Source: Escherichia coli O127:H6 str. E2348/69 | Lineage (GTDB): Bacteria; Pseudomonadota; Gammaproteobacteria; Enterobacterales; Enterobacteriaceae | Assembly (NCBI RefSeq): GCF_000026545.1 | Contig: NC_011601.1 | Reading direction: 5' to 3' (one strand) | Length of the DNA: 64,000 nt | Part shown: positions 3,991-8,338 of the stretch, piece after piece | Layout of the letters: every line of letters starts with the position of its first letter | Numbering within the stretch: the first letter of the stretch is position 1 | Made by a program: the position numbers and the translations under genes | The notes under the pieces: generated by a model | The model's database searches: none | What the model saw: only the letters and a program-made list of their open reading frames with translations | Told to the model about the DNA's origin: nothing

Positions 3991-4941
3991 TTACCTTCCC
4001 GCTCTCCAGGCAACATCCCGTAGCGCCGATCGCGCAGCCTCACTGATACCACCTAACTGAAAAAATCCGTGGATAACGCCAAGGTAGCGTTGGCAGGTGC
4101 ATTGCACTCCTTGCCCTGTCATGCGGTGATACAACGCTTCACCTTCATCGCAAAGTGGGTCGTATTCAGCGGTAATGATATGTACAGGTGGCAATCCATT
4201 GAAATCATTGCGCCAAATAGGGCTGGCTTCAGGATGCCTGCGTTCAATGCCTGGCAGGTACATCTCAAAGCCGCTCAGTAAAGTGTCGCGTGTGATGATG
4301 TAATCGTGACCATTGCGTATGTAGCTTTCGAAATGCGCAGTCGCATCAAGCATAGGATAAATTAAGATGAGTTGTGCTGGTTGCCACTCGCCAGCACGCT
4401 TCAATCGCAAAGCAGTTACCTGCGCCAGATGCCCTCCCGCACTGTCACCGGCAAGAGTTATTCGTTGTTTATCAACGCCGAGTCGTTCGGCGTGTTGCCG
4501 GACTAATTCTGCACCTCGTTGTGCATCATCATGGGCGGCGGGGAAAGTATGTTCCGGTGCCAGCCGATACTGGACGGCAATAATCCGACATTGCCCGTAA
4601 TAGGCTAACTGGCGCAGCTGGTTGTCGTGAGTTGCGAACCCGCCGCTAACAAAACAGCCACCGTAGTAATAAATTATCGTCGGGAGTAATGTCGGGGCAT
4701 TCAGCGGTGACACTATTCGTAAGGTCATCCCTTCAAGTTCGATAGTCTGAATATCTACCCGCGTTTCTGTCTCACCCGCAAGGACAGCGCTGGCGATATA
4801 GCCCTCTCTGCGCTGCGTAATACTTTGTTGGCGCGATGAGGGGCGACCCGCAGCGATAAACTCTTCGACTAACTCTGCAATTCCTTTTTCCAGTGCCATA
4901 GTAGAACTCATTTTGCTGTATGAATGTACAGTTTTATACAC
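3991..4941 (-). CDS. Alpha/beta hydrolase, hormone-sensitive-lipase (Abhydrolase_3) family esterase/lipase
   Basis: The ORF is 316 aa. It has an oxyanion-hole-like IYYYGGCF (an HGGG variant), the nucleophile elbow GDSAGG, and the distal acid/His elements DPLCDEG and VIHGF. It is not in the K-12 yiiD-yiiE interval. The start could instead be M11 or M15. Confidence 0.8.
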   Translation of the reverse strand: MYKTVHSYSKMSSTMALEKGIAELVEEFIAAGRPSSRQQSITQRREGYIASAVLAGETETRVDIQTIELEGMTLRIVSPLNAPTLLPTIIYYYGGCFVSGGFATHDNQLRQLAYYGQCRIIAVQYRLAPEHTFPAAHDDAQRGAELVRQHAERLGVDKQRITLAGDSAGGHLAQVTALRLKRAGEWQPAQLILIYPMLDATAHFESYIRNGHDYIITRDTLLSGFEMYLPGIERRHPEASPIWRNDFNGLPPVHIITAEYDPLCDEGEALYHRMTGQGVQCTCQRYLGVIHGFFQLGGISEAARSALRDVAWRAGR

Positions 4942-4986
4942 CCGTTTTTACTGGATGGATACAGGGAAATTCACGGGCGTGAAAAA

Positions 4987-5006
4987 TCTGGAAAGCGCCT
5001 CGCAAA
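4987..5006 (+). promoter_or_regulatory. Conserved box, copy 1 (TCTGGAAAGCGCCTCGCAAA); sigma54-like GG-N10-GC spacing
   Basis: This is one of three near-identical boxes (4987, 6220, 6668), all in the same orientation. It lies about 120 bp upstream of higB-like. Confidence 0.4.
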
Positions 5007-5073
5007 TGTAAAGACAAACCCGGCAGAGACGTGGTTTTGCTGGAGCACTATCAGTAAGCTAGTGGTTTCAAGG

Positions 5074-5090
5074 GTACGTCAATGACGTAC
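5074..5090. promoter_or_regulatory. Perfect palindrome GTACGTCA-A-TGACGTAC, candidate HigA-type operator
   Basis: It has 8-bp perfect arms around one central nucleotide and lies 38 bp upstream of the toxin ATG. Type II TA operons are typically autoregulated at such palindromes. Confidence 0.45.
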
Positions 5091-5127
5091 AAAAAGGATT
5101 GTTACTCTAAGCCAATGGCGTATAATT

Positions 5128-5439
5128 ATGCTCTTCATCGAAACGGAAATTTTTACTGAAGATGTTCAAAAACTGCTGACCGACGATGAATTCAGTCGTT
5201 TTCAGTTTTTCCTGGCCTTGAATCCTGACTATGGTGAGGTAATACCTGAAACTGGTGGGTTAAGAAAGGTTCGATGGGTGTCAGGAGGAAAGGGGAAACG
5301 TGCTGGTGTCAGGGTTATTTACTTTCATCAGGTTAAACATTATGAGATCAGATTACTGCTTATTTATCGTAAGGGTATTAAAGATGATCTGTCTCCCCAG
5401 GAAAAAGCAATGCTCCGGTTGTTAAATACGAGGTGGTAA
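5128..5439 (+). CDS. Type II toxin, HigB-2 / RelE-superfamily (toxin-first architecture)
   Basis: The protein is 103 aa. The core ETGGLRKVRWVSGGKGKRAGVRVIYF closely resembles recalled Vibrio HigB-2 (GTGGLRKIRVASKGKGKRGGSRIIYY). Its stop TAA is followed directly by the antitoxin ATG. Confidence 0.8.
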   Translation: MLFIETEIFTEDVQKLLTDDEFSRFQFFLALNPDYGEVIPETGGLRKVRWVSGGKGKRAGVRVIYFHQVKHYEIRLLLIYRKGIKDDLSPQEKAMLRLLNTRW

Positions 5440-5730
5440 ATGGATAAGGCACTTTTTGAGCGGTTGACTCACAGCATGGCCCAGATGAATGAAATTATTG
5501 AAGGAACGCGACAGCCTTCGCGGACTTTTGAAGTTGATGCTATGAAAATCAAAGAAATACGCCGCGCTTCAGGGTTGTCACAATCTAAATTTGCCGATCT
5601 TATTTCTGTAAGCGTAGACACGTTGCGTAACTGGGAGCAGGGGCGACGTTCACCGACCGGGCCTGCAAAGGCTTTGCTGCGAGCGATTGCCAATGATCCG
5701 CAACATGTGCTGCAAGCACTTAACCGTTAG
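5440..5730 (+). CDS. Type II antitoxin, HigA-2-like XRE-family helix-turn-helix protein
   Basis: The protein is 96 aa. Its C-terminal HTH segment (IRRASGLSQSKFADLISVSVDTLRNWEQGRRSP) is XRE-like. It lies immediately downstream of the toxin. Confidence 0.8.
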   Translation: MDKALFERLTHSMAQMNEIIEGTRQPSRTFEVDAMKIKEIRRASGLSQSKFADLISVSVDTLRNWEQGRRSPTGPAKALLRAIANDPQHVLQALNR

Positions 5731-6219
5731 AGGCATGGTTATGCCATACAGAAAGCACCAGCATTCAGAACTCCTGTGAAAGCGGCGTAGTGCCACCTGC
5801 TCAGGAGTTTTGCTATGACCCGTAATCGTGCTGACCGTTGCCACCCTATGATGCGATTAAAAAAACTCATCGTCGCGCCGATGATTGACGTCAATGCTAT
5901 CGGATGATGTCAGGGGTGTTCCGGAAGGAATTCCTTGTTTCCCGAACTGTTACCAACAAAATTATAACGATGAGCAAGTTAAGACCGGTTGGTAGCAGTA
6001 CTGACCGGTCTGTGATGGATGATTAATTTCACCTTAAATCCGGGTGCTGTTAGGATGCTGACATTTTTCGGCTACACCATTCAGATTATGCAATTAAAGA
6101 TCCAATCAAAAAATAAACATCCCTGTATATAATATATTCATAGCACCTATAATTCATTTTGGGCGATAACTAAACCATTTTTGAGTAACAAATGAAACAA
6201 CTGCAACGGACTTATTATT

Positions 6220-6240
6220 TCTGGAAAACGTCTCGCAAAA
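6220..6240 (+). promoter_or_regulatory. Conserved box, copy 2 (TCTGGAAAACGTCTCGCAAAA)
   Basis: This is the same box as at 4987 and 6668. It lies about 95 bp upstream of the yiiE ATG. Homology with copy 3 extends upstream about 25 bp (AACTGCAAC...). Confidence 0.4.
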
Positions 6241-6334
6241 ACAAAACAATATGAAAAAATCCGCTTTCGTTAATTAACTTTCCGGCGTAATTTTCGCACA
6301 TACATTAATGAGTAATATATGTAAGGTGGTGGTA

Positions 6335-6553
6335 ATGGCGATGAATACGGTTTTTCTTCATTTATCAGAAGAGGCAATTAAACGGCTGAACAAGCTTCGG
6401 GGATGGCGTAAGGTTTCGCGCTCTGCAATTTTACGCGAAGCGGTAGAGCAATATCTGGAGCGGCAGCAATTTCCGGTGCGTAAGGCAAAAGGCGGCAGGC
6501 AAAGGGACGAGGCAGTTGGTGTTGAAGAACTATGTAAGCAGCATAAGGAATGA
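6335..6553 (+). CDS. yiiE: CopG/ribbon-helix-helix family putative transcriptional regulator YiiE
   Basis: The 72-aa form starts MAMNTVFLHLSEEAIKRL, with an AAGGTGG Shine-Dalgarno 6 nt upstream. It is RHH-like (beta-strand then helices). Position and length match recalled K-12 yiiE. Confidence 0.85.
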   Translation: MAMNTVFLHLSEEAIKRLNKLRGWRKVSRSAILREAVEQYLERQQFPVRKAKGGRQRDEAVGVEELCKQHKE

Positions 6554-6667
6554 CAAAAAGATTTTTTCATTCTTGAATATAAAAACAAAAAACCAGATGA
6601 CCTTATTCTGGTATTAATACAAGGTTGTTTTACTTGAACTTATAATAACTGCAACTGTTACATCATA

Positions 6668-6688
6668 TCTGGAAAACGCCTCGCGAAA
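6668..6688 (+). promoter_or_regulatory. Conserved box, copy 3 (TCTGGAAAACGCCTCGCGAAA)
   Basis: This is the third copy of the box. It lies downstream of yiiE and faces the 3' end of convergent fdhE, with no plus-strand ORF after it. Confidence 0.35.
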
Positions 6689-6776
6689 TACGAGAGATTT
6701 TGCGGGAATAGCAGGTGTCGTCACACCCTATGAGCTGTAATCCGGGCGACCAGCGCCACCCGGAAAACGTCAGAGA

Positions 6777-7706
6777 TTACTCCCCTTCACCCGGAAACAG
6801 GAACGGGTTAATGGAACTACGGGCATAGCCTTCTTGCTCCATTCGCGCGTCCAGTACCAGAGAGGCGAGGTCATCTGCCACGGCTTCAACTTTCGGTTCT
6901 TTTTCCTGATAAAGAATCTTCAGGTAAGTGCCGCAGTCATCGCAGCTTTCGGCTTTAATCGCGGCCTGTTCGTCATCCAGCGACCAGTAATGCAGTTTGC
7001 CGCTCTGTTCACAGTTGCTGCATTTTACGCGCACTACGTGCCATTCAGTTTCACACAGGTTGCAGCGCAGGTAACGCAGACCCTGAGTGGTGCCAATTTG
7101 CACCATGCTGGACACCGGCATAGAGCCACATACCGGGCAATATTGACGTTGTTCGCCGTATTCAGCGCGGGCTTTGCCGGGGATCAGATTAGCCATCTGC
7201 GCCCAGTAGAGCGACAGCGCAGCCCAGATAAACGGCGCTTTATCGCTGCTGACGGACGAGAAATCAGAGGCAAACAGCGCGCTGGCCATATCTTCCAGCT
7301 CCTGAGTCGATGCCTTCTCCAGATTCTCAATCACTGCCAGCGCCGGGCCGCTCATTTCAGGTTTCAGCTCAGCAATTAGCGCCATCAGCAGCTTTTGCCA
7401 GTGCTTATCACGCGGCAGAACGTGAATATCCAGCGGGGGCTTGCCCTGTGCGCTGGCTTCTTTAATGCGCGCGGTCAGATCCATCTCCAGCGGATGGTCG
7501 TACAGCACCACTTCCTGGGCGTGGGCGATAAGCGCAGCAAAGCGCAGGTAATCACCCAGCGGATTATTTTCTGCCAGCTCGCGCAGACGCTCGGCGCGGC
7601 GGTTGTATAAATTCTTGAGCCGAGGGAACAATAACGGCGGAATCATATCCGCCGTACGTTTCTCGCTCGAACCCAGCTCATCTTGCGGGATTATGCGAAT
7701 ACTCAT
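6777..7706 (-). CDS. fdhE: Formate dehydrogenase formation protein FdhE
   Basis: The protein is 309 aa with four CxxC pairs ([27 protein letters not shown]). It matches K-12 FdhE and is syntenic. Confidence 0.96.
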
Positions 7707-8338
7707 TCAGCTTTCTTTTCCGTTGTCTTGCGGACCTCACGGTACCAGCGCGGGTGATGTTTCTTTGCCCAGGCGCTGGTCACCCATCCTTCCACCATGG
7801 CGGTAATCGTGCCTTTCACCCAAAGGGCGGCGTAGATATGCACCATGATAACCACAATTAACGCCACTGCGGCAAATGAATGCAGCATTAACGCGAATCG
7901 GATCACCGGGATTGAGAAAGCAGGCGCAAAATAAGGACGCCAGATAATCACGCCGCTCACCAGCAGCAGAACCAGGAAAATAATCGCCGCCCAGAAAACG
8001 CATTTCTGACCGAAGTTATAACGCCCGGTGTCACCTACTTCCTCGTTGACGACGATCTTACGAATATTCTTCGCCCAAAAGATATCATCCCGATTGATTA
8101 GGTTGTGATGCCAGTAACGGAAAAACATGATGATGAACGAGGCAAACATAACCACGCCGACAAACGGGTGCAGAATGCGCGCCAGCTGCGGTGTGCCCAT
8201 GATTTGCATCAACCAGTTGAAGGACGGGAACAAAAAGCCCAGCCCGCTCACCGCCGCCAGGATGAAGCAGAAGGCGGTGATCCAGTGGTTGATACGTTCC
8301 GGCGCGGTGTAGCGCACGATGGTGTCACGTCGTTTCAT
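7703..8338 (-). CDS. fdoI: Formate dehydrogenase-O, cytochrome b556 gamma subunit
   Basis: The 211-aa protein has four TM segments. It matches K-12 FdoI and its boundaries overlap fdoH and fdhE. Confidence 0.95.

Follow-up and report, generated by a model that had tools for sequence, protein, structure and literature searches.

A recurrent 20-bp box beside toxin-antitoxin-type genes of Escherichia coli E2348/69 is a candidate CRP-S site

Results

Three copies of one box between fabY and fdhE

We analyzed a stretch of 64,000 nt from Escherichia coli O127:H6 str. E2348/69 (contig NC_011601.1; hereafter, the window), in which an earlier note, made from the sequence alone, had described three near-identical boxes in the same orientation around yiiE, a gene encoding a ribbon-helix-helix (RHH) protein, and had proposed that these boxes might be sigma-54 promoters or operators for YiiE. 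The degenerate 20-mer TCTGGAAARCGYCTCGCRAA matches the window three times, always on the plus strand, against 0.02 matches expected, and none of 100 shuffles (0/100) yielded three, which bears out the original description of the boxes (Table 1). The ends that had been assigned to copies 2 and 3 were one base too long. The boxes stand in the local order fabY, a minus-strand esterase gene, box 1, a higB-like/nadS gene pair (5128-5730), box 2, yiiE, box 3 and the minus-strand fdhE gene, with box 1 lying halfway between the predicted divergent promoters of the esterase gene and of higB-nadS. Comparison of the copies agrees with the earlier note that the similarity of copies 2 and 3 continues upstream of the box for a further ~25 bp (AACTGCAAC..G....AT.AT). 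No such extension is seen at copy 1, and the sequence common to all three copies is the box alone.

E. coli genomes carry between one and four copies of the box (median 2), a genome-wide count that identifies it as a locus-specific element and not a generic repeat. E. coli K-12 MG1655 has two boxes, at 4079176-95 and 4079614-33, which lie upstream of yiiE and yiiF and correspond to boxes 2 and 3. The suspicion that a second small K-12 gene, yiiF, belongs near copy 3 proved correct, as K-12-type strains have this copy 113 bp upstream of yiiF. Copy 3 is an orphan in E2348/69, as had been supposed, because yiiF has been deleted there. An Rfam scan of the region returned only noise.

Table 1. Features of the region in window coordinates, with the evidence for each
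Feature	Position	Strand	Evidence and remarks
Esterase gene (Abhydrolase_3, alpha/beta hydrolase), divergent from box 1	3991-4899	-	Pfam PF07859, E = 2e-68; RefSeq
LexA-type SOS box CTGTATGAATGTACAG	4916-4931		Pattern match; overlaps predicted esterase start region
Predicted -10 TATAAA, esterase promoter	4933-4938	-	48 nt from box 1; inferred start ~4926, centre ~-70.5
Candidate CRP-S site 1, 22 bp	4986-5007	+	Box 4987-5006 = aTCTGGAAAGCGCCTCGCAAAt; exact pattern match, 10/10 core positions
Predicted -10 TAAGCT, distal (P1) higB-nadS promoter	5055-5060	+	48 nt after box 1; inferred start ~5067, centre ~-70.5
Perfect 8-1-8 palindrome GTACGTCA-A-TGACGTAC	5074-5090		Read from sequence
Promoter-like site TTGTTA-16-TATAAT, proximal to higB	5099-5126	+	Promoter scan
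higB-like gene, RelE-family toxin	5128-5439	+	Pfam RelE (weak); RefSeq
nadS, NadS/Xre helix-turn-helix (HTH) antitoxin	5440-5730	+	Pfam HTH_3; RefSeq
Candidate CRP-S site 2, 22 bp	6219-6240	+	Box 6220-6239 = TCTGGAAAACGTCTCGCAAA; 115 bp upstream of yiiE; pattern match
Predicted -10 TAATTT, distal (P1) yiiE promoter	6288-6293	+	48 nt after box 2; inferred start ~6300
yiiE, orphan RHH (CopG/VapB-like) antitoxin-type gene	6335-6553	+	Pfam RHH_1, E = 1.5e-11
Candidate CRP-S site 3, 22 bp	6667-6688	+	Box 6668-6687 = TCTGGAAAACGCCTCGCGAA; yiiF-upstream site, 9/10 core positions
fdhE	6777-7706	-	

The box conforms to the CRP-S core

Among sites for the cAMP receptor protein (CRP), the E. coli CRP-S motif is quoted as 5'-TGCGA-N6-TTCCA-3', an asymmetric element with one conserved and one weaker half-site (Sorensen et al. 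2019, PMC6728893), which is functional in either orientation, activates in a class I-like manner and requires Sxy together with cAMP-CRP (PMC6728893). Positions 3-18 of the box, TGGAA-N6-TCGCA, are the exact reverse complement of this motif. Membership in the class was assessed on the core T4G5C6G7A8-N6-T15(T/C)16(C/G)17C18A19, where one half or both have C6/G17 instead of T6/A17, and boxes 1 and 2, as well as the K-12 yiiE and yiiF boxes, agree with it at 10/10 positions. Box 3 agrees at 9/10 and fails the exact core pattern, its last core base (A19 to G) having been altered at the junction of a deletion. The TGGAA half of the box carries G6, as do Enterobacteriaceae half-sites that lack C6 (PMC1635313).

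The box also resembles sites in competence promoters of K-12, being identical at 17/20 positions to the sxy-promoter site TTCGGAAAGAGCCTCGCAAA, the TGCGA and TTCCG halves of which have been tested by mutation (PMC6728893), at 16/20 to the comEA/ybaV site TCCTGAAGCCGCCTCGCAAA and at 15/20 to the ppdD site TCTTCGTAACGCCTCGCAAA. As a control, the best match in ~1,900 random 210-nt segments of the window did not exceed 14/20. A 10-mer, GCCTCGCAAA, is common to the box and to the sxy, comEA and ppdD sites.

[quoted passage not shown] The variants TTTGGATGCCGTCTCGCAAA, TTTGGATGCAGTCTCGCAAA, TTTGGAAAGAGTCTCGCAAA, TCTGGACAATGCCTCGCAAA and, in Klebsiella, TATGGAAAGCGGCTCGCAAA keep TGGA and CTCGCAAA while the six bases in between change, and the same holds for natural variants of box 2 in other strains, which retain TGGA and TCGCA around a changed spacer. 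The TCGCA half is near-invariant, with a single TCGTA variant, and TGGAA varies to TGGAT or TGGAC, as illustrated by the variant cores TGGAT-GCCGTC-TCGCA, TGGAA-AGCGGC-TCGCA (Klebsiella) and TGGAC-AATGCC-TCGCA. Both orientations of the box relative to the neighbouring operons occur.

Taken together, these data make it likely that the three boxes are CRP-S sites acting via CRP-Sxy on flanking sigma-70 promoters. They would be new, or at least unrecognised, members of this known class of sites, and would probably place small toxin-antitoxin-type genes under competence control.

Distribution and genomic contexts of the box

A box scan of one genome per species located the exact box in ~40 enterobacterial loci, its other matches being at about chance level, in coding sequence or on contaminant contigs. 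Intergenic, context-conserved occurrences are confined to the Enterobacteriaceae, and thus fall within the gamma-proteobacterial sub-clade, including the Enterobacteriaceae, from which alone Sxy and CRP-S promoters have been reported (PMC6957337); the range of the box is in this respect that of a site of Sxy-encoding gamma-proteobacteria. The 20 bp are invariant over at least eight unrelated intergenic contexts in more than 10 genera, and identity falls to background at both edges, a pattern that points to selection on the box. A full-text search of the literature returned no paper containing the box sequence.

Citrobacter, Enterobacter, Klebsiella, Phytobacter and Salmonella all have box 1 at the equivalent position, although the flanks have diverged. 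On the side of the box facing away from the esterase gene lie vapB-vapC in Citrobacter, Enterobacter, Superficieibacter and Klebsiella, the higB-like genes in Escherichia, C. amalonaticus and Salmonella, and a LysR gene or nothing in Phytobacter. Elsewhere, the box precedes a Gp49-like toxin gene and an HTH antitoxin gene near infA-clpA, accompanies relBE between nrdG and cybC and a Gp49/HTH pair between ilvY and ilvA, and is found with ccdAB, with rhuM, with a phosphotransferase system (PTS) gene beside yfhM and with P1-type C4 antisense RNA modules. The antitoxins of these box-linked cassettes belong to unrelated DNA-binding families.

Several further observations were made on these loci. 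In four of them, the box has an Rfam C4 antisense RNA of the P1/P7 immunity type at a distance of 150-170 bp (L005, 806-889; L021, 3759-3845; L013, 1718-1804; L036, 4948-5033), and each copy is followed by an open reading frame (ORF) of 145-151 aa with no Pfam match. At the loci of class A, a P1 C1 operator-like sequence, ATTGCTGGATAAAA, and a LexA-like CTGT-N8-CCAG adjoin the box. A conserved coding sequence, probably that of DNA polymerase II, likewise contains the exact 20-mer in Ewingella and in two metagenome-assembled genomes (MAGs), one of the Enterobacterales and one of the Comamonadaceae (L022, L064, L066); these coding-sequence matches are a coincidence unrelated to the intergenic boxes. 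Finally, public contigs with the labels Bacillus coahuilensis, Enterobacter sp. (239 bp), Clostridiales, Veillonella parvula MAG and Robinsoniella (L019, L038, L039, L052, L058) carry E. coli yiiE-yiiF-fdhE intergenic sequence, consisting of the yiiF-upstream region or, in L039, of the box 3 junction of the E2348 type. The E. coli sequence in these contigs most likely reflects assembly contamination.

The box is not recognized as a sigma-54 promoter

The earlier note had read the box as a sigma-54 (RpoN) promoter, with TGG at -24, GC at -12 and a start ~12 nt downstream. Like -24/-12 promoters, the box is a compact, asymmetric element with GG and GC 12 bp apart; the GG-N10-GC spacing is indeed present, a TCGC at -12 occurs in glnAp2 too, and the bipartite conservation is superficially like that of -24/-12 elements. 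To score this resemblance, we built a position weight matrix on 135 RpoN sites determined by chromatin immunoprecipitation sequencing (ChIP-seq; Bonocora et al. 2015). True sites score between 6.8 and 20.3 bits with this matrix (median 14.4; 5th percentile 9.7; n=135), compared to 5.3, 7.1 and 1.6 bits for boxes 1, 2 and 3, respectively. The boxes therefore score below 133-135 of the 135 true sites, with at most 2/135 true sites lower, and 107-708 positions in the window reach their scores or better. The top match in the window, CTGGCGCGCATTCTGCA (8169-8185, minus strand), lies inside fdoI and is the published intragenic RpoN site IS47, a positive control indicating that the matrix works.

Experimental data point in the same direction. 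The two K-12 boxes coincide with no RpoN ChIP-seq peak in the main tables or supplements, and with no peak in an RpoN genomic SELEX (gSELEX) screen. The box, moreover, conserves positions that are not sigma-54 positions (CAAA after the GC, and TGGAA), is directed away from the operon in the relBE and ilvY-ilvA cassettes, and is not accompanied by a conserved activator site upstream. Among orthologues, the one start that has been mapped, that of K. pneumoniae yiiF, uses a sigma-70 extended -10 promoter. The sigma-54 reading is thus largely refuted already, and we regard it as extremely improbable.

One other sequence, CCGGCGTAATTTTCGCA (6282-6298, plus strand), reaches 12.96 bits with the RpoN matrix, far above the boxes. 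It is identical in K-12, where no RpoN peak has been reported for it, and its overlap with the predicted distal yiiE -10 hexamer suggests that it is probably a chance match.

The box stands beside antitoxin genes of unrelated families

The alternative that the box is an operator for RHH proteins of the YiiE/YiiF type, also raised in the earlier note, draws on the position of boxes 2 and 3 upstream of RHH genes and of the box before vapB in six other genera. It fails because the same box stands beside unrelated antitoxins (HTH, RelB, CcdA) and at a cassette-free site: identical copies adjoin Gp49/HTH, HigB/Xre, RelBE, CcdAB, PTS gene and c4 RNA modules, all without an RHH gene, and one is present at an empty site (L016). 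YiiE and YiiF, furthermore, are 41% identical and differ in their DNA-reading beta-strand residues, yet have the box in common; YiiF is an orphan VapB orthologue with 66% identity to a VapC-paired Klebsiella protein. The box itself has no repeat symmetry, and inverted repeats distinct from it, at the start codons, make better candidates for operators. Accordingly, we consider an RHH operator very unlikely.

One such repeat, the perfect palindrome at 5074-5090, lies between the predicted P1 promoter and the promoter-like TTGTTA-16-TATAAT proximal to higB, and is a probable operator of the NadS/Xre antitoxin. At the vapB/yiiF start codon, the inverted repeat is ATATAC-TGGAG-GTATAT; vapB/yiiF genes begin within it and have an extended -10, TGATATACT, ahead of it (L084, 2540-2565; also L009, L018, L028, L033, L037 and L043), and K-12 yiiF has a decayed version, TGATATTGG.

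An additional alternative is that the box acts in RNA, as a transcribed 5'-leader element, or encodes a small peptide. Its distance to the downstream start codon is constant (98-145 nt), and copy 2 does lie within the 20-codon ORF (6192-6254) that had been reported for it. This ORF is not conserved at the other copies, however, and a leader peptide was rejected since the reading frames differ between contexts. There is no Rfam match, the orientation of the box is inverted in two cassette types, and transcription of the Klebsiella orthologue has been mapped to a start downstream of the box. A leader or peptide function therefore has next to no probability in our assessment. The preference of the earlier note for a DNA- or RNA-level element over a peptide is upheld, in that the box is a promoter-associated element acting at the DNA level.

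Candidate sites for other regulators were rejected as well. Published data show induction of yiiE by SlyA and binding of H-NS to it; the box does not agree with the SlyA consensus, TTAN6TAA. An RpoS gSELEX peak between yiiD and yiiE is ~600 bp from box 2. PhoB, OmpR, CpxR, MarA/Rob, Ada, PurR, Cra, GalR, TyrR, FadR, IHF and Fis sites and the P1 C1 operator mismatch the box. A sigma-70 promoter inside the box was also discarded, as no -10 hexamer recurs consistently, on either strand, at a suitable distance from a -35-like sequence in the box.

Predicted promoters lie at regular distances from the box

The positions of predicted -10 hexamers relative to the box are conserved on both of its sides. 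In all esterase loci, across genera, the box start is 47-48 nt from a conserved minus-strand TATAAC or TATAAA. On the other side, a TAnnnT hexamer begins at box position 67-69 in 4/4 higB contexts (TAAGCT, TAAGGT or TAGAGT at the equivalent offset) and in 9/9 vapB/yiiF/yiiE contexts. In all of the latter, the box end is 48 nt from a TA..TT hexamer (TATGTT, TATTTT, TACTTT or TAATTT) and 76-77 nt from the extended -10 TGATATACT. An alignment of vapB/yiiF/yiiE upstream regions places the TAATTT of yiiE, at position 69, within a conserved block, G.GTA..TT. On the assumption that 7 nt separate the hexamer from the transcription start, the centre of the site falls at ~-70.5 on both sides. When all contexts are pooled, the first bases of TAnnnT hexamers group at box positions 58-62, 67-69 and 79-82, corresponding to centres of ~-60 to -63.5, -68.5 to -70.5 and -80.5 to -83.5, with a spacing of about one helical turn.

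Mapped transcription start sites (TSS) offer one point of comparison. The K. pneumoniae yiiF start has been mapped 4 nt before the ATG, making the transcript nearly leaderless (Kim et al. 2012, Table S4). We assign it to the proximal sigma-70 extended -10 promoter, ~90 bp downstream of the box, which in Klebsiella lies 119 bp upstream of the yiiF ATG; this start fits a P2-type promoter. The Cappable-seq, SMRT-Cappable-seq and Conway 2014 TSS tables contained nothing usable for these promoters.

The esterase gene has, in addition, a LexA-type box, CTGTATGAATGTACAG, between its predicted -10 (TATAAA, 4938-4933, minus strand) and its ATG. This LexA-type box is kept at the same position in all esterase loci (Citrobacter, Enterobacter, Klebsiella, Phytobacter and Salmonella), and its conservation in place across genera suggests that the esterase gene is SOS-regulated.

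A possible secondary role of the box in recombination

The gene yiiF is absent from E2348/69 and from E. ruysiae, and the E2348/69 sequence leaves that of K-12 directly after ...CGCCTCGC. At this junction (6684-6715, compared with 4300-4335 of L002), the window reads CGCCTCGC|GAAATACGAGAG and K-12 reads GTAACGCG|GAATACGAGAG downstream of yiiF; the microhomology is CGC(G), and E. ruysiae (L006) has the identical allele. E. coli TO148 (L080, 5590-7533) carries, between yiiE and the yiiF-upstream region, a two-gene island on the minus strand encoding a DUF6708 protein and a hypothetical protein, with its right junction 25 bp upstream of box 3.

The box could be primarily an att-like recombination junction, at which small cassettes enter or are exchanged to give box-cassette-box arrays, with any regulatory role secondary. 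Outside E. coli, the genera with this locus have just one box between the esterase gene and vapBC. In E. coli, the flank of this single ancestral box on the esterase side is retained at box 1 and its vapB-side flank at box 3, with an insertion of 1.2-2 kb between them that carries higBA, box 2 and yiiE. In Citrobacter, Phytobacter and Escherichia, cassette content switches within ~10 bp past the box, and the yiiF deletion stops exactly at the edge of box 3. From this cassette switching and the deletion end, the box also behaves as a recombination junction. Against a primary recombination function, no recombinase is associated with the box, which has no inverted-repeat core. The relBE and Gp49 cassettes contain the box internally, 100-110 bp away from the cassette end, and their empty sites lack it. 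The TO148 island inserted 25 bp upstream of box 3 and not at it, and a recombination function would leave unexplained why the box is so close to the sites of sxy, comEA and ppdD, none of them a cassette border. An integron-like attC/attI site is likewise not indicated, the box lacking an inverted repeat, no integrase being annotated nearby and the box being internal in two cassette types. A mobile-element end, or a phage or plasmid element, was rejected on the basis of the low copy number, the lack of inverted repeats and the near-absence of the box from phages, viral contigs and true plasmids. We therefore treat recombination at the box as a consequence of shared homology, and deem it improbable that this is its primary function.

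Discussion

A model for CRP-Sxy control of the flanking genes

From the sequence evidence, we infer CRP/Sxy binding at the boxes, the P1 promoters with their starts, and activation from these promoters. As a non-canonical, asymmetric CRP site, each box would be occupied productively by cAMP-CRP only together with the competence co-activator Sxy (TfoX). As Sxy accumulates, CRP-Sxy on the box would contact the alpha-subunit C-terminal domain (alpha-CTD) of RNA polymerase in a class I manner and might thereby turn on weak sigma-70 promoters, the predicted -10 hexamers of which lie ~48 nt from the box edge (centre ~-70.5). Box 1 probably serves two divergent promoters, that of the SOS-boxed esterase gene on its left and the distal higB-nadS promoter on its right, and box 2 would serve the distal yiiE promoter. 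Box 3 would once have served yiiF and be a relic in E2348/69. In addition, the antitoxin-type genes would retain a second, proximal promoter controlled from a palindromic operator of its own, in a two-promoter layout such as that of hicAB.

Several observations weigh against this model. The spacer AGCGCC and the leading TC are conserved beyond what CRP contacts alone explain, which may be due to Sxy contacts or to common descent. In the relBE cassette, the box is just 25 nt from a TATAAT, giving a centre of ~-47.5 that is neither class I nor class II, and at the class A loci the search for a TAnnnT hexamer in the direction of the Gp49 toxin gene yielded none at a class I distance. The sole experimental start is that of a proximal promoter, measured under Sxy-free conditions, and the distal promoters are predictions. 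The box is duplicated around inserted cassettes, where it also acts as a recombination junction, and we found no open-access paper linking yiiE or yiiF to Sxy.

The high conservation of the spacer and flanks, compared to typical CRP sites, and the uneven geometry among contexts could also mean that the box is the site of a different regulator and merely resembles CRP-S. This would have to be reconciled with a 10/10 core match and with 15-17/20 identity to sites of three independent competence promoters, far above chance. The asymmetry and free orientation of CRP-S sites also apply to the box, as would class I distances for the predicted centres near -61, -70.5 and -81.5. We thus judge a different regulator to be unlikely, and favor the assignment of the boxes to the CRP-S class.

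Implications

If this assignment is correct, yiiE, yiiF, the higB-nadS module and the LexA-boxed esterase gene, otherwise uncharacterised, join the small Sxy/CRP-S regulon. Competence-linked control of toxin-antitoxin (TA) genes, known so far for hicAB and toxTA, would extend to at least five further TA families in more than 10 genera, and would provide a testable answer to the question of when silent, H-NS-covered cassettes are expressed. In addition, the common 10-mer GCCTCGCAAA may help define what Sxy adds to DNA recognition by CRP. More tentatively, the CRP-S box might be a portable module carried along, throughout the Enterobacteriaceae, by small cassettes for addiction and immunity (vapBC, two higBA types, relBE, ccdAB and P1-like c4 RNA), wiring them and the SOS-boxed esterase gene into the Sxy regulon, with the 20-bp identity serving as a homology anchor for tandem insertion and giving rise to box-cassette-box arrays such as the three copies of the window; we regard this extended scenario as possible but doubtful.

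Comparison with known systems

One of the closest known counterparts is the CRP-S site in the promoter of sxy (tfoX) (Jaskolska & Gerdes 2015; Sorensen et al. 2019, PMC6728893), which differs from the box at three of 20 positions (TTCGGAAAGAGCCTCGCAAA versus TCTGGAAAGCGCCTCGCAAA). Both have the same asymmetric halves, with the TCGCA half promoter-proximal, as predicted for higB, yiiE and yiiF, and both have a TAnnnT hexamer (TAAGTT in sxy) at a near-equal offset. The weak half of the sxy site, in contrast, is CGGAA (TTCCG on the other strand) instead of the TGGAA of the box, and the sxy site has been experimentally tested and drives sxy autoregulation, whereas the boxes are predicted sites that adjoin accessory cassettes.

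Two TA operons with CRP-S promoters invite comparison. In the account of Turnbull & Gerdes (2017) given in PMC6957337, hicAB of E. coli K-12 has a distal promoter, P1, that depends on CRP-S and Sxy and is not repressed by the antitoxin, and a proximal promoter, P2, that is antitoxin-repressed. The box loci resemble hicAB in being TA operons and in the layout, predicted here, of a distal CRP-S promoter and a proximal one at the start codon. The hicAB site itself is a variant that we read as TGCAA-ATTAGC-GCGCA, a poor match to the box (12/20 positions), and the toxin and antitoxin families differ. The toxTA operon of H. influenzae (HI0660/HI0659), of the type II TA kind with the toxin gene in first place, was acquired by horizontal transfer and has a CRP-S promoter (Black et al. 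2020, PMC6957337). Its toxin of 119 aa and antitoxin of 98 aa are matched at the class A loci by a Gp49-like protein of 119 aa and an HTH protein of 99 aa, but Pasteurellaceae CRP-S sites are palindromic (TGCGA-N6-TCGCA), and the locus and lineage are unrelated.

Lastly, the boxes share with canonical CRP-N class I promoters, such as lac, a 22-bp CRP-type site, with a predicted centre at least one helical turn upstream of -61.5, and the activation through activating region 1 (AR1) and alpha-CTD that is proposed here. They depart from canonical CRP-N sites in having G17 for A17 in one half and no G7 in the other, and these two differences imply that CRP alone should bind the box poorly and that Sxy would be required.

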